From Candidatus Brocadia sp. (lineage in GTDB: Bacteria; Planctomycetota; Brocadiia; Brocadiales; Brocadiaceae): DNA of 32,000 nt. The position numbers were made by a program, and so were the translations under genes. Below are positions 1,597-28,179 of this stretch, in pieces. Each line of letters starts with the position of its first letter. Within the stretch, counting starts at the first letter, position 1. Location of the stretch: positions 3,450,001 through 3,482,000 of the forward strand of contig CP091279.1 of the NCBI GenBank assembly GCA_021650915.1. The letters are read 5' to 3'. The notes beneath the pieces are model-generated. The model was not told the origin of the DNA and ran no database searches. It saw only the letters and a program-made list of their open reading frames with translations.

Positions 1597-1702
1597 TATA
1601 GTATTACTGTATAAAATCTTTCTTTTTTTGCAATTTTTTTGACAACCCCCTTCACCCCCTTTGTTAAGGGGGAATTGGTTGCGGCTGTGCTGCGTTATGC
1701 AA
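1597..1702. repeat. Modular intergenic repeat, copy 1 (module A 'tatagtattactgtataaaatctttcttttttgcaa' + 'ccccct..aggggg' hairpin + 'ggttgcggctgtgctgcg' module)
   Basis: Same modules recur at 15130-15265 and, with a different middle module, at 19403-19629, 13836-14060 (reverse) and 6398-6607. Confidence 0.8.
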
Positions 1703-1873
1703 TTTCTTGCCAAACATATTTTACCCAATACCTGCGTAAACATTATGGACCAATATCATCCCTGTGGTCTTGCCCATAAATATCCGGAGATTAACCGGCG
1801 TATTAGTGATAAGGAATTTGAGGACGCCCTTCGCATAGGCCGTGAAGAAGGTATCAGCAGGTTGGCCGACTAA
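1695..1873 (+). pseudogene. 3' remnant of a radical-SAM (PflX/COG1313-like) gene
   Basis: Only the tail of ORF 1661-1873 looks genuine: ...NTCVNIMDQYHPCGLAHKYPEINRRISDKEFEDALRIGREEGISRLAD*. From memory this matches the C-terminal ...NIMDQYRPC... end of PflX-type radical SAM proteins. The first ~12 codons of the ORF are repeat sequence and no upstream body exists. Confidence 0.45.
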
Positions 1874-1955
1874 GGGATTACAGGTAATACAATGGGTAGA
1901 ATTTCGATAGTAAAGGGTGTAATGGATACGTTTGTTTGCCTGTGTCTGATGTAAT

Positions 1956-3191
1956 ATGAAAGATTGGTATGATCTCATTGTTGTTGGTGGTGGTCCTGCA
2001 GGCATGATGGCCGCCGGCCGCGCTGGCGCAAGAGGGAAAAAGGTTATTCTCTTAGAAAAAAAAGACCAACTGGGCAAAAAGCTCCTTATCTGCGCATCGG
2101 GTCGGTGTAATGTAACCAATACGGCCTCTTTGGAGATATTTATAGAGGAATACGGAAAGGGAGGTTCTTTCCTTCGCGCGGCATTACAAAGATTCGATAA
2201 TGAAAAATTATGCTCGTTCCTTCTGTCGTATGGGATAGAAACGGTCGTAGAAAATAAGGGGCGGGTATTTCCAAAAAGCCAGAGGGCAGATTCCGTTTTA
2301 ATGGCGCTTAAAACTTATATGCATGGCCATGAGGTACAAATTCAAACAAATTCAGAAGTTCTGGAACTCAAGGTAGAAAGCAATCGTGTATCCGGTGTGG
2401 AAACCAATCACGGAAACATCTTCGGCAAAAATATTGTAATTGCAACGGGCGGGTGTAGTTATCCTGCCACCGGCAGTACGGGGGATGGCTATAGATTGGC
2501 ATCTTCTGTGGGGCATACCATTTATCCAACATATCCCGCGATCATTGCCTTTGAAACTGAGGAAACATGGGTAAAACCCTTACAAGGAACCCCCTTGAAA
2601 AATGTAAACATCACGGCATATCAATCCGGCAAGAAGATCGCAGAACAGTTTGGTGAGGCGCTTTTTACCCATTATGGCGTATCTGGTCCAGCCATCCTGG
2701 ACATGAGTAAACGCATCGTTGAGTGTTTACACCAAGGATATGTTCAAATACGTATCGACCTTAAACCCAAGCATACGCCAGAAGAACTTGAAAGCATCCT
2801 CCTGGATCAGATTAAACGGCACGGTAGTAAGGCCATGAAATCTTGTCTGACCTTTTTCATTCCTGAAAAATTAACCCCCATTTTCGTGAATCTCTGTAAC
2901 ATTGAACCGCAGAAAAAGGCATCTCAGATAACAACGCCGGAAAGAAAGAGGATCGTGAAACTGCTCAAGGGGCTTTCGCTCACCTCCGTGCGTCACCGGC
3001 CTATCGAGGAAGCGATTGTCACTGCCGGTGGCATAAGCCTGGATGAAGTCGATGCAAAGACCATGCAATCTAAGCTATGGAAAGGCTTATATTTTGCCGG
3101 AGAGGTACTAGATATTGATGGTCCCACAGGTGGATTTAACCTTCAGGCAGCGTTTTCCACCGGATATCTTACCGGGGATTCTGTTGATTAA
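1956..3191 (+). CDS. HI0933/BaiN-like NAD(P)/FAD-dependent flavoprotein
   Basis: 411 aa ORF with ATG start. N-terminal Rossmann motif DLIVVGGGPAGMMAA, GRCNVTN motif and C-terminal GEVLDIDGPTGGFNLQ typical of the HI0933 family. Confidence 0.9.
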   Translation: MKDWYDLIVVGGGPAGMMAAGRAGARGKKVILLEKKDQLGKKLLICASGRCNVTNTASLEIFIEEYGKGGSFLRAALQRFDNEKLCSFLLSYGIETVVENKGRVFPKSQRADSVLMALKTYMHGHEVQIQTNSEVLELKVESNRVSGVETNHGNIFGKNIVIATGGCSYPATGSTGDGYRLASSVGHTIYPTYPAIIAFETEETWVKPLQGTPLKNVNITAYQSGKKIAEQFGEALFTHYGVSGPAILDMSKRIVECLHQGYVQIRIDLKPKHTPEELESILLDQIKRHGSKAMKSCLTFFIPEKLTPIFVNLCNIEPQKKASQITTPERKRIVKLLKGLSLTSVRHRPIEEAIVTAGGISLDEVDAKTMQSKLWKGLYFAGEVLDIDGPTGGFNLQAAFSTGYLTGDSVD

Positions 3192-3331
3192 CATCAAGAA
3201 ATAAGGTATGGTATCTATCCAATAACCTAACGATGTAATGCTCTGACCTATTTCAAATGCTGCACCAGTTGGGTAATTTGGGTGGATTAAGCAAAAATGA
3301 ATCTACCCTTCTACCTTAGTTTGTCCTGGCC

Positions 3332-3826
3332 TTGATTCGGGACAGTGTGTTGGAGTTAGTAAAAAATATTATGGATGACGTGAAGATGTGTGAACATAAG
3401 GATGTCCAGGGTGATACTCAACCGTGGTACAAAGAAGGCCTGAGGTTTGAATGTCAGCGATGTGGCAGGTGTTGTCGCGGTGAACCCGGTGTGGTATGGG
3501 TTCATAAAAGAGAAATAGAAAATATAGCGGCGTTTTTTGGCATTACACAGCAGGCATTTGCAAAAAATTATTTGAGGACGATAAATGACCGGTGTAGTTT
3601 AATAGAATACAGCAACGGCGACTGTATTATGTATGATAACGGCTGCAAGATTTATGATGTAAGGCCGTGTCAGTGCAGGACGTTTCCGTTCTGGAAATCA
3701 ACGCTGGAAAACCGGTCGGAGTGGGAAAAGTTAAAGAAGACCTGTCCCGGCGTGGGTAAAGGGAAGGTGCATACGATGAAAGAGATTGAAGAAAATGTAA
3801 AAATATATGAAGGGCGTTTTGGCTAA
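3332..3826 (+). CDS. YkgJ-family (UPF0153) cysteine-cluster protein
   Basis: CQRCGRCC (CxxCxxCC) motif plus downstream Cys pairs. The track start at 3332 is TTG; an ATG at 3371 (MDDVKM...) is an equally plausible start. Confidence 0.8.
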   Translation: MIRDSVLELVKNIMDDVKMCEHKDVQGDTQPWYKEGLRFECQRCGRCCRGEPGVVWVHKREIENIAAFFGITQQAFAKNYLRTINDRCSLIEYSNGDCIMYDNGCKIYDVRPCQCRTFPFWKSTLENRSEWEKLKKTCPGVGKGKVHTMKEIEENVKIYEGRFG

Positions 3827-6130: not shown

Positions 6131-6347
6131 GTAACTATTCAGCGTACTTTCGCTCACAATCACTACGAGTGAACAAAATATTGATGCTGTAATCCCGAAG
6201 GGATGTCATGATTATAGAAAAAAACGCACCGCCATATTCAACCCCGCAGGGGTAAAATATCGGGAACATAGCGATACTATGCCACCACTACGGGGTTAAC
6301 TATAATTGCATGACACTATAATGTTACTGTGTAAAAACTGGTTTTTT
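6124..6347 (-). repeat. Composite repeat: module R1 (6124-6217) + module C (6191-6340), reverse orientation
   Basis: R1 is near-identical to 13741-13835 and is inverted at 15446-15505. C matches 14050-14190, 27650-27795 and 15287-15445. Confidence 0.85.
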
Positions 6348-6397
6348 GCAACCCTATTTACCCCTTATCAGAAGGTACTGTTTATTTATAAGAAAAG

Positions 6398-6647
6398 GAT
6401 TGCTTCGCTTCACTCGCAATGACAACGTACCGTATCTCATCAAAGGCATAGCCAGCGTCATTGCGGGTACTCCAGTCTGATAAACGCCGGGAGAATAGCG
6501 CCCGCATGTCATCCAAGACAGAGTCAGCGTCAGTGCGAGGGTCTTGTCCGAAGCAATCTCCCGCCTTCACAACGGGGATTTGGTTGCGGCTGTGCTGCGC
6601 TATGAATAATATCGTCTTGTAGGGGCAGGTTTCAAACCTGCCCCTAC
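6398..6647 (+). repeat. Module B long hairpin ('gattgcttcgcttcactcgcaatgaca' ... 'gcgagggtcttgtccgaagcaatc') + 'ggttgcggctgtgctgcgc' module + palindrome gtaggggcaggtttcaaacctgcccctac (6619-6647)
   Basis: Module B recurs at 19489-19629 and, reversed, at 13836-13975. The 29-nt palindrome recurs at 22201-22231. Confidence 0.8.
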
Positions 6648-6746
6648 ACGGTATGGTACACATCGCTATTATTGGGATTTTTCAAAAAACCCGTGGTAAG
6701 ACCTTTCTGTGGAGCATGCTCCAGTGCATCAATTTTTATTTTTCAC

Positions 6747-13713: not shown

Positions 13714-13740
13714 GTTTATCGTATTACCGCGCAAAATCTT

Positions 13741-14195
13741 TCTTTTTTGTAACTATTCAGCGTGCTTTCGCTCACAATCACTACGAGTGAACAAAATATT
13801 GATGCTGTAATCCCGAAGGGATGTCATGATTATAGCCTGGCGCAGCAGCACAGCCGCAACCAAATTTCCTTTATGAAATCGGGGAGATTGCTTCGGAAAA
13901 GGCCCTCGCAATGACAGCGACCATGCACTTTGATGGCACACTGCATGTTGTCATTGCGAGTGAAGCGAAGCAATCTTTCACTCATAAAAAACGGCACCTC
14001 CTGAAAGAGGTTTGTGAAAAAACTTACAAAAAAAAGAAGTTTTTATACAGTAATACTATAGTGTCATGCAATTATAGTTAACCCCGTGGGGGTGGCATAG
14101 TATCGCTATTTTCCCGATATTTCACCCCTGCGGGGTTGAATATGGTGGCGCGTTTTTTCTATAATCATGTCATCCCTTCGGGATTTTTCAAAAAG
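13741..14195. repeat. Largest composite repeat locus: R1 (13741-13835), B reversed (13836-13975), A reversed (13985-14060), C (14050-14190)
   Basis: Each module matches copies at 6124-6610, 15130-15535, 19403-19629 and 27622-27800. ORF 13753-13941 is a translation artefact of the repeat. Confidence 0.9.
14136..14165 (+). promoter_or_regulatory. Repeat-borne promoter-like element TTGAAT-N18-TATAAT
   Basis: TTGAAT at 14136-14141, TATAAT at 14160-14165, followed by catgtcatcccttcgggatt (C(UUCG)G hairpin). The same arrangement occurs in the copies at 27742-27771, 6211-6241 (minus) and 15307-15337 (minus, TTAAAT). Confidence 0.35.
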
Positions 14196-15068: not shown

Positions 15069-15129
15069 AGAGGTGTGTTTAATGCTGGCAAATGCTTTAA
15101 CCGGACAAAGATCGATAATGTCTGATTTT

Positions 15130-15286
15130 ATAGTCTTGCTGGATAAAATCTTTCTTTTTTTGCAAGGTTTTACAACCCCCTTCACCCCCTTTCCTAAGGG
15201 GGACTTAGTTGTAGTTTTTCTAAGGGGGAATTGGTTGCGGCTGTGCTGCGCTATGTAACCATTCAGCGAAAACTGCAAGACCGGAA
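15130..15286. repeat. Modular repeat (A + duplicated 'ctaaggggga' hairpin module + 'ggttgcggctgtgctgcgc')
   Basis: Matches 1597-1702, with the taaggggga segment duplicated. Confidence 0.8.
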
Positions 15287-15445
15287 AATCCCGAAGGGAT
15301 GTCATGATTATAGAAAAAAGCACACCACCATATTTAACCCCGTAGGGGTGAAATATCGGGAAAATAATGATACCATGCCACCCCTATACGGGGTTCACCA
15401 TACTTGCATAACAACATGCTATAATCATGACATCCCTTCGGGATT
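15287..15445. mobile_element. 159-bp MITE-like unit (module C) with perfect 27-bp terminal inverted repeats
   Basis: aatcccgaagggatgtcatgattatag (15287-15313) is the exact reverse complement of ctataatcatgacatcccttcgggatt (15419-15445). The interior matches the module C copies. Confidence 0.55.
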
Positions 15446-19402: not shown

Positions 19403-19629
19403 TATAGTATTACCGTATAAAATCTTTCTTTTTTTTGTAAGTTTTTTCACAAATCCCTTTCAGGAGGTACCGTTTTTTATGAGTGAAAGATTGCTTCGCT
19501 TCACTCGCAATGACAACGTGCAGTGTGGTGCTATCAAGGTGCAGATCGCTGTCATTGCGAGGGTCTTGTCCGAAGCAATCTCCCGCTTTCACAACGAGGA
19601 ATTGGTTGCGGCTGTGCCGCGCTATAAAT
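19403..19629. repeat. Modular repeat (A + B long hairpin + 'ggttgcggctgtgccgcgc')
   Basis: Reverse complement of 13836-14060. ORFs 19389-19709, 19410-19592 and 19483-19737 are artefacts of it. Confidence 0.85.
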
Positions 19630-24290: not shown

Positions 24291-24478
24291 TGTTATCTTG
24301 GATTCTCGTTTGCTCGGAAATGATAAATTGGTTTTTATATTTTAACAACCTCAATCTCTGGCGTCTAATTTTTTGGTAGAGTAGAAAAAGAGAGACTTGG
24401 TTAAAGAAAAAGCCCTCCAAATATGGTAAAAAATAGTTTTGATACAAGAAACTAAACCATAAAGAGAAGGAGGGCTAT

Positions 24479-25274
24479 ATGGGAGCAACCCCATGCACAG
24501 ATGGTATCACAATAGAATTTGGTTGTCAAATTCGGGTTGAATTAAAGGACGACAGCCTGGAGTCGATTCTCAAGGCATTTTGCAAGATACTGCCGGAGAT
24601 ATTAAGGGATTTTATTCAGAAGATCGTGGTTGGTTTTGGTGAGAGTGCGATGGCGCAATCACGGAAGCCATTTTGCTGCGACGAATGTGGGAATGACAAG
24701 GAGTTTATCTGGAAGACGAGGCATGGAAAAGAGACGAAGATACTGACGGTCTTTCAGTGGTTGAGATTAGAGCAGTTGCAGGTGCAGTGCAAGAGGTGCG
24801 GTCATAAGATGTATATAACGCGAAAGCTTCTGGGGATGGAGCGGATGAAGCGAATACCACCAGAGACGTATCGGAAGCTTGGGCTGGTAGGGTCGTTAAC
24901 GACCTACCGGGTGGCGAAGAAGATCGTGTCGATGTTTGGCTGGACCGTAGACAAGATGACGATAGGGAAATCGGTGCAAAAGACGGCAGCAGAGATAGAT
25001 TTTCAACTCGACGAGAAGGGACTTCCCCTGGGAGAAGCAGACGGGACAGGGGTAGGGATTAAGGGGATAGCCAAACGAGGCAAGGAGCTCAAGGTCTTTG
25101 TGCAATACAAGAGAGGTGGAGGGGTGAGAGTGGCAGGGCTTGACATAGGGAATTACAACGGTAGTTGGGATAAGCTTTTTGGTAAGAGTATTAAGGTGTT
25201 CAGGAAGTTTTCCCGGTTTCTTTTGATAACCGATGGAGACACCTCTATTTTGGATAGTTTGAAAGGCAAGGTTA
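24479..25274 (+). pseudogene. 3'-truncated putative DDE transposase with N-terminal zinc ribbon (ISLre2/ISKra4-like architecture)
   Basis: CCDECG...CKRCGH, then EADGTGV and LLITDGD. Resemblance to these families stops at about 25272, where a TIR-flanked element begins; the ORF tail to 25375 is foreign. The family call is from memory. Confidence 0.45.
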
Positions 25275-25450
25275 ACCCGACATTCGCAATTCGCGTCCAA
25301 AAAAGGTTATTTTTGGGCAAGAGTCGCCTGGAAAGCCTTGAAATTCAAGGGGTGAATTTTCAAAACGGCTTGTAGTGCCGACCTTTTTGCATGACCCCTT
25401 GATTTTCCTGACTCAGAGGGTTGCATACCCCTCGAATCGCGAAAGTCGGG
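25275..25450. mobile_element. 176-bp MITE-like element with ~20-bp terminal inverted repeats, flanked by TA
   Basis: acccgacattcgcaattcg (25275-) versus gcccgactttcgcgattcg (complement of -25450), 17/20 identical. TA at 25273-25274 and 25451-25452 within a gtTA..TAac context. Confidence 0.5.
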
Positions 25451-25452
25451 CT

Positions 25453-25669
25453 AACATTAGGATGTGCTGCCAGCCACCCCCTCATTTCGTTTGTGAATGC
25501 AGTAGTTGTCAAGGATGACATGGACTTCTTTCTTGTCGCTCTCCGGCAAATCCAAAAGGAGTTGATCCATAAATGCCAGGAATTCTACGCGTCTTTTTAA
25601 TTCTGTTGTTTGTGTATGAATAGCCCCCGTTGAATCCAGATGAAGAAGCCTGGAATACGGTAAAGACAC
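25453..25669 (-). pseudogene. IS630-family transposase fragment (central part, frameshifted)
   Basis: ..RRVEFLAFMDQLL...VHVILDNYCIHK.., then WLAAHPNV in the adjacent frame. No start and no C-terminal E region. Confidence 0.55.
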
Positions 25670-25680
25670 AAAAACTAAAT

Positions 25681-25785
25681 GTGAAACCTATTAAAGACAA
25701 AAAAGAACTACACTCTGTTGTTCTCGGTTCTTTAAGGTCAATTCAAAAACGACCAGAACAGATAAAAGAGTTCTTTCGTAAATAG
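25681..25785 (+). pseudogene. Possible C-terminal tail of an IS630/DDE_3-type transposase, opposite orientation to the neighbouring fragment
   Basis: VKPIKDKKELHSVVLGSLRSIQKRPEQIKEFFRK* resembles the ...eL...v...l..i...p..i..FF tails of DDE_3 transposases, from memory. Confidence 0.3.
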
Positions 25786-25867
25786 TCTGCTTAATTATGT
25801 CCTAGAGCGGCTCTGCCGCAACCGAAGCTTTAAAACCGTCCTCCAATAGTGTATATTTAATTTTTTT

Positions 25868-26018
25868 GTAACACTTTAGTTTTTTGAAAAATTACCATAA
25901 TAACGATGTTACCGCACGGTGTAGGGGCGAAGCATTTGCCATAAATTGGCATAAATGTATTCACACCCCAAGCTGGCAAATGCTTCGCCCCTACTTTTTC
26001 AAAAAACTAAAGTGTTAC
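25868..26018. repeat. 151-bp compound inverted repeat (24-bp outer arms + 20-bp inner arms)
   Basis: Outer arms gtaacactttagttttttgaaaaa (25868-25891) / tttttcaaaaaactaaagtgttac (25995-26018). Inner arms gtaggggcgaagcatttgcc (25921-25940) / ggcaaatgcttcgcccctac (25975-25994). All are perfect, with a 29-nt asymmetric bulge and a 34-nt loop. Confidence 0.9.
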
Positions 26019-26074
26019 CTTTTTTTAAAGTGGAATCCTAACCACTGGTTTATACACAAGAGAGGAGGACGGCA

Positions 26075-27622
26075 ATGGAGAAGTTTCTGGAGAGATATGA
26101 TAGCAAAATCAGTGGGGTAATATCAACCTTTGATCGGATGATATTCAAGGGGCATATCCTGTCGTTTTTTCAAAAAGGCAACAGGCATCATTATTTATTT
26201 CAGGAGAAGGTGTTGTTTAAGGATTTTGGTAAGTATGCGAAGAAAGTGTCAGGTGAAATTAAGGATAAAGCGAGAGAGTTGTCGGACAAAGAGGGACGTC
26301 CGTTAATACCGCTGGATTCAAGCAGAATCAGCAAGGAGGACATTGCGCGGAAAGTACAAAAAGAAGAGGGAATAAAAGAAGGGCTTATTTGTGTCATAAC
26401 GATGGTAGAGCGGTGTGTATCGTTTGATATCCGGGGTAATAGAGAGACAGGGAAATGAGAGGTGGTAATTCGGGAGCGCCGATGTTTGTTTCTGTATTTT
26501 TATTACCAACACAAGGAGTTTGGTTTCATGCAAGTACGGATTCAGACGTGGTTTCCCTTTCAGATACAAATTTATATCAACGGACGTGAATGGTTGTGTA
26601 AACGGCTGGATAGGAAGGGCATTGGTTATCAGAGACACGACAATAGTATTATTCAGGTTGATGATGTAAAGGTGGCGCAGGAGATAGCGGAACGGTTTGT
26701 TGATGTCGGTTTTGTGAAGGCATTTGACGCGCTTTGCCGGCAGATAAATCCCGTTTTACCCCGGATAAAAAAGGTATTTTCTAAGGGATATTATTGGGTG
26801 CTGGATCAAGGGGAGTATGCAACCGATGTAATGTTCAAAGATCGGCAAAGTTTGCGAGAAATCTATCCGGAACTGGTAGAGCATGCCTTAGTGAACTTCA
26901 ATGCCTCAGACGTGATGACCTTTTTGGGGAGAAAACTCACGGGTAATTTTCGAGGCGAGATTATAACGGATACGAAGAAAAGACCGCAAGGGGTTCGCAT
27001 CAAGCACCGCATGAAGAAGAATTCCCTGAAGATGTATGACACGTGGAGTGTGTTACGGGTGGAAACAACCATGAATAACCCGCGTGAGTTTAAGATATAC
27101 CGTGAGGTAGAGCGTTGTGGTGAAAAAGTGATGAGATGGGTGCCTATGGGTAAGAGTGTGTTTCATCTTTACCGTTATGCTGAGGTATCGAAAAGCGCCA
27201 ATGGGCGATATTTGGGTGCATTGTCAGCAGTTGTACCCCTGCACGATTGTGTAAAAGAACTGGAGCAACTTGCTCAACCTGTCCGTGATGGACAGAGCCG
27301 TCATTCCGGATTTAATCCATTATCCCCTGAAATAACCAGAGTATTTGAAGCCGTTTTAGACGGCGCTCATAGTATAAATGGTTTTAGAAATAAAGATTTG
27401 AGGAGCCAATTGTTTGGTGATAATACCAGGTCGCCGGAAGAGAAGAAAAAGACGGGCTCAAAAATAACGAGGATAATAAGAAAGCTCAGGGCTCACGGGC
27501 TTATATCGAAAATACCCCGTTCGACGAGGTATAAAGTTACTGAAAAAGGATATCGTATTTTGGGCGCATCTCTTGAAATGAAAAAGAAGCATCTCCCTAC
27601 AACAATGAAATATGTTGCTTAA
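26075..27622 (+). CDS. Conserved hypothetical protein (515 codons) with a single in-frame TGA at 26456-26458; C-terminal winged-helix-like region
   Basis: ORFs 26075-26458 and 26462-27622 are in the same frame, separated only by TGA GAG. The motif run ..FGFMQVRIQTWFPFQIQIYINGREWL.. spans a family I recall only as 'hypothetical'. The tail LRAHGLISKIPRSTRYKVTEKGYRIL looks like a wHTH. Confidence 0.6.
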
Positions 27623-27800
27623 AAAAAACTTACAAAAAAAGAAGTTTTTACTGGGTAATACTATAGTGTTATGCAATTATGGTTAACCCCGTATAGGTGG
27701 CATAGTATCGTTATTTTCCCGATATTTCACCCCTTACAGGGTTGAATAGGGTGGCGCGCTTTTTCTATAATCATGTCATCCCTTCGGGATTTTTCAAAAA
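27622..27800 (+). repeat. Modular repeat (A reversed + C), same orientation as 14030-14190
   Basis: acttacaaaaaaagaagtttttactgggtaatactatagtgttatgcaattatggttaaccccg...ctataatcatgtcatcccttcgggatttttcaaaaaac. Confidence 0.85.
27742..27771 (+). promoter_or_regulatory. Repeat-borne promoter-like element TTGAAT-N18-TATAAT
   Basis: TTGAAT at 27742-27747 and TATAAT at 27766-27771. It points toward the transposase stub and the GlcF-like gene. Confidence 0.35.
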
Positions 27801-27816
27801 ACCAGCGTGTTACAGG

Positions 27817-27993
27817 AATGAAACCAAGAAGAAAAGGAGAACGATATAGGAGTTACCCCATGCACAGATGGTATCACCTAGAATTTGGTTGTCAATTTCA
27901 CGTTGAATTCAGGGACGGCAGCTTAGCGGTGATTCTCAAGGCATTTTGCAAGGTACTGCCAGAGCTGTTGAGGGATTTTGTCCAGGAGGCGCC
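27817..27993 (+). pseudogene. Second copy of the first ~175 bp of the element at 24449-25272 (transposase 5' stub)
   Basis: ..ccccatgcacagatggtatcac..gaatttggttgtcaa..ctcaaggcattttgcaag..ctgcc.gag.t.ttaagggatttt aligns with 24449-24625, with a 1-nt indel. Confidence 0.7.
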
Positions 27994-28179
27994 TGCGCCA
28001 AGACAGTAAAAATTCCTGTCCCATGAAATTCCGGTAGCGTGTCAGAAACGATCGGCGGTGCATGGTCAAAAGCATTGCCGAAAAAAGCCTCCCTTTTTTA
28101 TTTTCTCTTTGCTACAATTACTTTTTATAACAAAAGAGAATACCTTTTCCGATGCAACGATAATAAGATGGGATAATGC

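Follow-up and report, generated by a model that had tools for sequence, protein, structure and literature searches.

An insertion-sequence-like element in Candidatus Brocadia whose single gene encodes a putative Rep_trans-like tyrosine nuclease

Introduction

What is the role of a conserved gene that resembles only 'hypothetical' proteins, is split by a single in-frame stop codon and is preceded by a large compound hairpin? This question is raised by a locus of Candidatus Brocadia sp. that lies in a stretch of 32,000 nucleotides (assembly GCA_021650915.1, contig CP091279.1, positions 3,450,001 to 3,482,000, forward strand), referred to here as the window, from whose first letter all positions are counted. 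A preliminary description, made from the letters alone, took the gene for the possible cargo or enzyme of an uncharacterised mobile element, tied the hairpin to it and left undecided whether the TGA is a nonsense mutation or is recoded. Here we report that related genes are carried by multi-copy units with conserved ends in several bacterial phyla and that positions 25801-27665 of the window are probably a decayed copy of an insertion-sequence-like transposon which the libraries searched do not recognise. The predicted structure of its protein points to a tyrosine nicking-joining enzyme of the Rep_trans kind.

Results

The two open reading frames (ORFs) of the locus, 26075-26458 and 26462-27622, share one reading frame, and the TGA at 26456-26458 is their sole separator. 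The joined protein can be aligned along 98-100% of its length with full-length homologues of 507-520 aa, and the conserved block runs on across the TGA in the homologue alignment, so the two halves belong to one gene, as the preliminary description had held. Its statement that the family is widespread was also borne out. The homologues, about 510 aa long, number more than 4,200, with 'hypothetical protein' the only source name seen among them, and a profile search of 1.84 billion cluster representatives returned 11,188 clusters at E <= 0.001 (the figure of about 11,000 counts clusters at 50% identity). None of the sources seen annotates the family as mobile. Family members occur in Planctomycetota, Bacillota, Chloroflexota, Acidobacteriota, Gemmatimonadota, Desulfobacterota, Pseudomonadota and others; a homologue on plasmid pOLGA1 (30% identity) is named 'ArsR family transcriptional regulator' in RefSeq, the one other name seen. 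Searches of Pfam, NCBIfam, PHROG, PADLOC and the PDB sequences, with the single sequence and with a profile, gave no match beyond a weak C-terminal winged helix (HTH_27, E = 0.025, by hidden Markov model (HMM)). Structure comparison gave MarR-type matches for the winged helix with a probability of 0.96-0.99, in agreement with the C-terminal domain that had been proposed.

The homologues stand in units of 1.7-1.9 kb, each with a single gene of about 510 codons, and no other conserved gene was found near the family gene. The borders of the window copy were set by comparison with four other Brocadia copies, from which it diverges upstream of TCCTAG and downstream of ...GTAATACTATA, its right end halting at ...GGGTAATACTATA (27665). 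Pairwise comparison of copies within single genomes revealed units at different sites that are 99% or fully identical and have sharp borders, namely in a Gemmatimonadales metagenome-assembled genome (MAG; Gemmatimonadota; L012, L013 and L015, unit of 1944 bp), in Lachnospiraceae A4 (Bacillota; L033 and L035, 1794 bp), in a second member of the Lachnospiraceae (Bacillota; L038 and L043, 1807 bp), in a Desulfobacterales MAG (Desulfobacterota; L049 and L050, 1716 bp) and in an Isosphaeraceae MAG (Planctomycetota; L068, L069 and L075, about 1690 bp). Neither terminal inverted repeats nor target-site duplications were found in these pairs when their ends and flanks were compared. Across the genome collection, at least 600 stretches matched a pattern, among the 600 listed 471 encode a relative, and several genomes are multi-copy. 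The copy-number and flank census that the preliminary description had proposed thus returned multi-copy homologues with conserved ends, against the single-copy homologues expected of a plain dead gene, and its suggestion of an enzyme of an uncharacterised mobile element has gained accordingly.

Most homologue-bearing contigs are just 1.6-2.5 kb long, and many contigs of 1.7-2.3 kb start exactly with CATAGC and end with ...CATA. In one Brocadia contig of 3.25 Mb, the assembly is interrupted by a run of N exactly at the position that the element body would occupy (L088, 5249-5427), which shows how the element breaks assemblies.

The two ends of the element are asymmetric, the left differing from the right. 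Upstream of the gene, about 55 of 81 loci from many phyla carry CATA[GC]C GCRGCY nnn RGCYGC AAYCAAA, that is, a left end made of GC, a GC-rich hairpin of 5-6 bp and AAYCAAA, always with (C/T)ATA before it. The stem varies by compensatory changes (GCGGCC/GGCCGC, GCAGCT/AGCTGC, GTGGCT/AGCCAC and GAAGCC/GGCTTC). Even next to the 30%-identical homologue on the Paraburkholderia plasmid pOLGA1 (L082, 3989-5503), a left-end-like CCGG-n5-CCGG-AACCAAAC lies upstream. Right ends terminate in ...ATA, and 2-17 nt away from it stands a small hairpin that is poorly conserved. Judged from junctions, the element proper would extend from the GC-plus-hairpin to ...ATA, and the (C/T)ATA on the left would represent either the target or the terminus of a copy lying upstream. 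In Pyrinomonadaceae (L052, L060, L061, L067 and L077), an extra 13 nt (ATCCRCAGATTAC) upstream of the left-end hexamer are kept across MAGs and may represent either a longer left end or a specificity of the insertion site.

Within the window, the left-end pattern has 6 matches (0.14 expected) and the right-end pattern TTTTAYNNNGTAAYAYTATA has 7 (0.06 expected). They pair into five gene-less mini-elements of 103-288 nt without flanking duplications (m1 to m5, Table 1), which are scattered in intergenic DNA and co-occur with full copies. Near m3, a right end may also stand alone at 13717-13736 on the minus strand (TTTTGCGCGGTAATACGATA, which differs from the pattern at 2 positions). Elements can moreover stand head to tail. 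In the Brocadia copy L003, the right end ...ACTATA is directly joined to GC-GCAGC-aaa-GCCGC-AATCAAA, the left end of another member, and a metagenome scan for the junction AGTAATACTATAGCGCRGC gave 13 contigs with tandem mini-elements or full elements in which the right end abuts the left (...ACTATA|GCGCGGC...). One of these contigs (L108, 1-3406, contig reverse strand) holds a perfect head-to-tail dimer of a 1700-bp element, 2-1706 being 100% identical to 1702-3406, with an intact 514-codon ORF in each unit and then unique flank.

Such a dimer also speaks for an alternative, in which the units are small rolling-circle plasmids or satellites that integrate only occasionally, the contigs of 1.7-2.3 kb then being circular replicons. 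The contig sizes are indeed like those of tiny Rep-only plasmids, and a Rep-like enzyme with a hairpin could act as an origin. However, whole-element contigs start and end exactly at the element ends and are not circularly permuted, several identical copies lie within chromosomal contigs of 0.2-0.8 Mb, and mini-elements of about 100 nt are scattered in intergenic DNA. We therefore regard the plasmid explanation as improbable and treat the units as transposon-like.

Structure prediction on the joined protein, as the preliminary description had advised, gave a confident model with a two-module beta-sheet core and a winged helix. The AlphaFold2 (AF2) model of the full-length protein has a mean predicted local distance difference test score (pLDDT) of 92, and that of the core (residues 1-401) a pLDDT of 96.4 and a predicted template-modelling score (pTM) of 0.92. 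The modelled chain runs beta-alpha-beta(4-6)-alpha twice, followed by helices and the winged helix. A Foldseek search of the PDB with the full-length model returned winged-helix matches only, and a search of viral models returned TBP-fold proteins, including A0A2N9QVX7, plus Inoviridae proteins. With the winged helix removed, the top four PDB matches were chains A-D of 4CIJ (E = 0.0075-0.012), followed by TBP (1AIS). 4CIJ is the Rep_trans rolling-circle initiator of Geobacillus. Rep_trans enzymes carry the motifs N' Asp, RxD, T/SxY/ExG, YxKxxE and W/LxRxE on a sheet of two 5-strand modules; their tyrosine lies on a beta-strand, with R189 and K193 flanking Y191, and the residues that hold their metal, D46, D142 and E214, come from three separate strands (PMC5714925, PMC4797284).

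Twelve residues are invariant in 114 diverse family members (D20, R21, G103, E112, Y141, Y143, G150, N169, E247, Y321, R328 and E330), and several of them fall on the Rep_trans motifs. D20, in FDRMIFKG on the first strand, corresponds to D46 in SFDAMTIVG or SIDRITIVG (motif N'). On the first strand of module 2, Q-x-E247-Y-A-T-D251 is aligned with R-L-D142-L-A-F-D146 (motif I); here the acidic residue is kept, as are the Ala and the second Asp, but not the Arg. G306-V-R308 (strand 306-313) matches G180-V-R182, K319-M-Y321-D-K323 (strand 316-323) matches R189-I-Y191-N-K193 (motif III), and L-R328-V-E330 (V/L-L-R-V-E, strand 326-333) matches W-R212-V-E214 (motif IV). By analogy, Asp20, Glu247 (with Asp251) and Glu330 would hold the metal, and the nucleophile would be Tyr321 on its beta-strand, flanked by Lys319 and Lys323. 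When only the catalytic module was compared by hhalign, the whole colinear alignment was recovered, with 28% identity over 67 columns (P = 0.017) and FLGR also paired with FYGR. On model and motifs together, the protein is likely a Rep_trans-like tyrosine nuclease, by a link that is statistically insecure.

A number of points weigh against this reading of protein and element. The 4CIJ matches are weak (probability 0.41-0.51, template-modelling score 0.19-0.26, root-mean-square deviation about 14 A); motif I is QxE instead of RxD and motif II is unmatched; none of 27 members has a match at E <= 10 to PF02486 or PF22477, or to any Pfam family apart from that of the winged helix; and full-length hhalign of alignments A2 and A4 against a Rep_trans alignment (sequences from a RepC homologue search, all at least 81% identical, plus five plasmid Reps added by hand) gave a probability of 0.3-0.5%, with only the N' motif aligned. 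As to the element, the neighbouring-gene look-ups for an empty site reached the same strain only, in which mini-element m1 was present, and the limits of the element, with its exact cleavage points and its YATA target, are read from junctions only because no true empty site was found.

It could therefore be argued that the element is mobile and that its protein, a recombinase or nuclease of a new kind, has no relation to Rep_trans, in which case convergence or coincidence would explain the TBP-like sheet and the motif matches. The lack of significance in the profile-profile and HMM comparisons and the weak Foldseek scores favour this, as do the invariant E112, Y141, Y143 and N169, which have no counterpart in the Rep_trans motif set. 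Yet the best match in the whole PDB is Rep_trans, five local motifs are colinear and on equivalent strands, the predicted architecture is the same as that of the archaeal Rep-Arvir proteins, and a hairpin end, the lack of duplications and tandem arrays fit a nicking enzyme. An unrelated enzyme is unlikely on these grounds, although it deserves more credit than any other alternative weighed here.

Another explanation is that the protein is a DNA-binding regulator or a passenger and that a host or unlinked recombinase moves the element. The winged helix is the only part recognisable by sequence and one RefSeq homologue carries the name of an ArsR regulator, but the element carries this one gene and no other in every phylum, a core of some 400 aa in which Asp, Glu and Tyr residues are invariant goes far beyond the needs of a regulator, and gene-less mini-elements co-occur with full copies while no other gene is conserved nearby. 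We give this explanation the least credence of all. A family protein that is the element's own transposase, a Rep_trans or TBP-fold tyrosine nicking-joining enzyme (as pT181 RepC/RepD and archaeal Rep-Arvir) with an added winged helix, would account for the element best.

Whether the window copy could still make such a protein depends on the TGA at codon 128. This codon is Leu in 24 of 26 aligned homologues (Ile and Met in the other two) and in 92% of 117 family members; in three Brocadia copies (L003, L095 and L001) it is TTA. Neither Cys nor Sec was found at this position among the aligned homologues, and the RNA after the TGA folds no better than chance (z = -0.46). A selenocysteine or other programmed recoding, which the preliminary description had considered together with a selenocysteine insertion sequence (SECIS)-like hairpin downstream, was rejected in view of the Leu at the homologous position and the lack of both Cys/Sec and downstream structure. 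Since TTA stands at codon 128 in L003, L095 and L001, the TGA is best read as a single-base nonsense change from Leu (TTA). The window copy also departs from the family at 7 of 128 columns of at least 90% conservation, where the median member departs at 3, its departures including K323T (in the Y-x-K motif), H153Q, Y188H and N364H. With a TGA for Leu, no recoding signal and mutated K323 and H153, this copy is most likely inactive. A second sequence, P0087, that had seemed broken at the same place was rejected as such: a frameshift and deletions break it, and its codon 128 is Leu.

A copy in B. carolinensis (L002, 545-579), with different flanks, does have the same in-frame TGA together with Gln153 (CAG; CAA in the window). 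Between the window copy and L002, 8% of sites are different, with a synonymous divergence (dS) of 0.27 and a ratio of nonsynonymous to synonymous divergence (dN/dS) of 0.16, and both are free of further stops and frameshifts; such a ratio is not what is expected of a long-dead lineage. These facts would suit a functional TGA, either as a leaky stop that throttles the transposase or as a device that yields an N-terminally truncated inhibitor from Met152. On the other side stand the Leu at codon 128 in about 92% of members and in the three close Brocadia copies, the lack of structure after the stop, and the further conserved residues altered in the window copy, K323 among them. In addition, near the TGA and Gln153 codons L002 is otherwise like L003, the window, L002 and L003 copies being mutually mosaic, and the sites in common can be accounted for if copies have recombined or if the MAG assemblies are chimeric. 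A functional TGA is thus distinctly unlikely, somewhat less so than the plasmid explanation, and we keep to the nonsense change.

The compound hairpin upstream of the gene was confirmed as described, in two tiers. Its outer arms (25868-25894 and 25992-26018) are 27 nt long and 96% complementary, with 24 nt perfect, and its inner arms (25921-25941 and 25974-25994) are perfect over 21 nt, with 32 nt between them. The folding energy of the region, taken as single-stranded DNA, is -49.1 kcal/mol, whereas shuffles give -15.1 +/- 2.7 (z = -12.4), which is far beyond chance. A third, weaker tier that the preliminary description had not listed (25836-25856 and 26052-26072, 76%) takes in the ribosome-binding site. 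At the position of the hairpin, L001, L003 and L095 lack the 152-bp insertion and have the sequence ...GATTTTATTAAAGTGG, reading uninterrupted across it as ...TATATTTGATTTTATTAAAGTGG...; the uninterrupted 5' untranslated regions (UTRs) of L003 and L095 fold with pairing of CCGUCCUCC to the Shine-Dalgarno sequence (GGAGGACGG), at z = -4.5 for L003 and z = -2.5 for L095. The structure into which the insertion has gone, near its apex, is that of the element's own 5' UTR. Stems that sequester the Shine-Dalgarno sequence are common in insertion sequences.

Because these three related copies lack it, the compound hairpin is best understood as an independent insertion resembling a miniature inverted-repeat transposable element (MITE) and foreign to the gene's system, and the idea that it forms the element's own end or a regulatory structure was rejected. 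Terminal arms of 24-27 bp, TTTTTTT on both flanks and presence or absence between related sites, as in MITEs, were all seen. Only one partial further relative of the hairpin was seen (6640-6690): on the minus strand, 6605-6700 holds a relative of its left half, 84% identical over 51 nt, then a different GTAGGGGC...GCCCCTAC hairpin, and abuts the left end of mini-element m2. An Rfam search with the palindrome returned sub-threshold miRNA look-alikes only.

The surroundings of the element are rich in remnants of other insertion sequences. Two 5' stubs of one transposase-like gene flank it, as had been described; they are 82% identical in DNA (24454-24622 and 27821-27988), the stub regions at 24479-25375 and 27773-28009 carry CxxC pairs, and Pfam gave no significant match for either. 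Immediately to the left of the element, at 25457-25785, lie fragments of an IS630-type transposase (DDE_3, weak match) on both strands. A second repeat of about 135 nt (GTGTYATGCAATTATRGTTAACCCCGT...CCCTTCGGGAT) occurs at 27666-27800, 14061-14194, 6191-6316 (minus strand) and 15285-15413 (minus strand). It directly follows a right end of the element in three of these places, the fourth having no right end, and one copy precedes the transposase-like stub at 27773; the repeat could be a terminus of some other insertion sequence or a preferred target.

Table 1. Features of the element copy, its parts and the mini-elements in the window
Feature	Position	Strand	Remarks
Full-length but disabled element copy, insertion-sequence-like	25801..27665	+	1865 bp; about 1713 bp without the 152-bp foreign insertion
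Left end	25801..25827	+	CCTAGA, hairpin GCGGC-tct-GCCGC (25807-25819), then AACCGAAG
Native 5' UTR stem	25836..26072	+	CCGTCCTCC (from 25836) pairs with GGAGGACGG (ribosome-binding site, to 26072); split by the inserted hairpin
Two-tier palindromic insertion, MITE-like, 152 bp	25868..26019	.	TTTTTTT on both sides (25861-25867, 26020-26026)
Codons 1-127 and in-frame TGA (26456-26458)	26075..26458	+	includes invariant Asp20 at 26132-26134
Codons 129-515	26459..27622	+	from alignments A1, A2 and A4, models and the count of departures from conserved columns
H153Q	26531-26533	+	
E247	26813-26815	+	
D251	26825-26827	+	
Y321	27035-27037	+	
K323T	27041-27043	+	
R328/E330	27056-27064	+	
Winged helix	about 27431-27535	+	
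Right end	27623..27665	+	hairpin 27624-27631 / 27642-27649, then ACTGGGTAATACTATA
Mini-element m1	1597..1699	-	103 nt; left-end hairpin and right end, no gene
Mini-element m2	6317..6604	-	288 nt
Mini-element m3	13839..14060	+	222 nt; six bases before hairpin atypical
Mini-element m4	15129..15255	-	127 nt; right end with 2 mismatches to pattern
Mini-element m5	19403..19626	-	224 nt

Discussion

The closest known proteins in predicted structure are those of the Rep_trans group (pT181 RepC, pC221 RepD and RepSTK1; PF02486; CTXphi RstA, Tn916 Orf20 and ICEBs1 NicK). They share with the family the Asp on strand 1, a strand Tyr that has a basic residue on either side (at -2 and +2), the LxRxE of the strand after it, and an adjoining DNA hairpin; the two-module antiparallel TBP-like sheet and the acidic residue where module 2 begins its first strand appear, from the model, to be common to both as well. 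Profile similarity is not significant, the core of the family has about 400 aa instead of about 200 and contains large helical insertions, a winged helix takes the place of the four-helix DNA-binding domain of the Rep proteins, and the family gene belongs to a chromosomal multi-copy element with defined ends, whereas Rep_trans genes are found on plasmids, phages and conjugative elements. Rep-Arvir (DUF7845, PF25227), with RepSNJ2 of the archaeal virus SNJ2, has been reported as an archaea-exclusive replication initiator of viruses and plasmids, for which Foldseek found nothing but winged helices in the PDB, and TBP and the Inoviridae Rep in a viral library (PMC13107129). This is the same pattern as that obtained here, down to the TBP model A0A2N9QVX7, and the two groups also appear to have in common a catalytic domain of the TBP fold, about 300-400 aa long, with a MarR-like winged helix behind it, and a similar spacing of acidic residues and Tyr (D207..Y283..E303 in Rep-Arvir, E247..Y321..E330 here). 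Unlike Rep-Arvir, the element described here is bacterial and transposon-like in behaviour, and no PF25227 match was found in 27 members.

In its behaviour as a transposon, the element resembles systems that are driven by HUH enzymes. With IS200/IS605 (IS608 and ISDra2, which use the HUH Y1 TnpA) it shares asymmetric ends with subterminal hairpins, the lack of inverted repeats and target duplications, a left end that abuts a fixed tetranucleotide, and short gene-less derivatives. It differs from them in that its enzyme is not HUH and is 3-4 times larger, in the lack of TnpB, and in that the tetranucleotide by the left end resembles the element's own right terminus. With IS91, ISCR and Helitrons (HUH Y2) it shares the single gene, the lack of inverted repeats and duplications, a fixed tetranucleotide beside the insertion, and head-to-tail arrays of the kind expected from bypassed termination (L108; PMC5714925), but the catalytic fold and motifs are other ones, there is no helicase, and the gene has its conserved hairpin on the upstream side. 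Pfam and NCBIfam gave no match to Y1_Tnp or to any other HUH family, Y1 or Y2. We rate the element as a probable rolling-circle or single-strand transposon that would be driven by a tyrosine nuclease of another fold. In the literature, ISfinder and closed-access journals being outside the search, neither a transposase of the Rep_trans or TBP-fold kind nor a description of this element was found.

By analogy with Rep_trans, IS91 and IS200/IS605, transposition might proceed as follows. The enzyme would bind the left-end hairpin, nick one strand just 3' of YATA and remain linked to the 5' phosphate of the element strand, which would be displaced or copied as far as the right-end ...ATA. The strand could then be joined at a new site 3' of a YATA resembling the element's own right end, without duplication. 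Head-to-tail arrays would arise when termination fails, or when the strand inserts beside a resident copy or uses the right end of such a copy as target, and gene-less mini-elements with just the two ends would be mobilised in trans.

To conclude, we lean towards regarding the family as a new catalytic class of prokaryotic transposase, a TBP-fold, Rep_trans-like tyrosine nuclease that stands beside the DDE, DEDD, HUH, serine and tyrosine-recombinase classes and drives abundant, phylum-spanning rolling-circle or single-strand transposons and their mini-elements, with the recurrent TGA128 and Gln153 perhaps a selected attenuator or inhibitor. If this holds, about 11,000 clusters of 'hypothetical' proteins would become a recognisable insertion-sequence family with defined ends, and breaks in annotation and assembly in many MAGs would be explained. 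The roles of Rep_trans and TBP-fold nickases would reach transposition, beyond plasmid and phage replication and conjugation, in parallel to the HUH enzymes of IS91, IS200/IS605 and Helitrons, and the archaeal Rep-Arvir architecture would have a bacterial counterpart. Since the element is so compact, with a single protein and with ends of about 30 nt on the left and about 45 nt on the right, its mechanism would be directly testable, and it might find use in the insertion of single-strand DNA.

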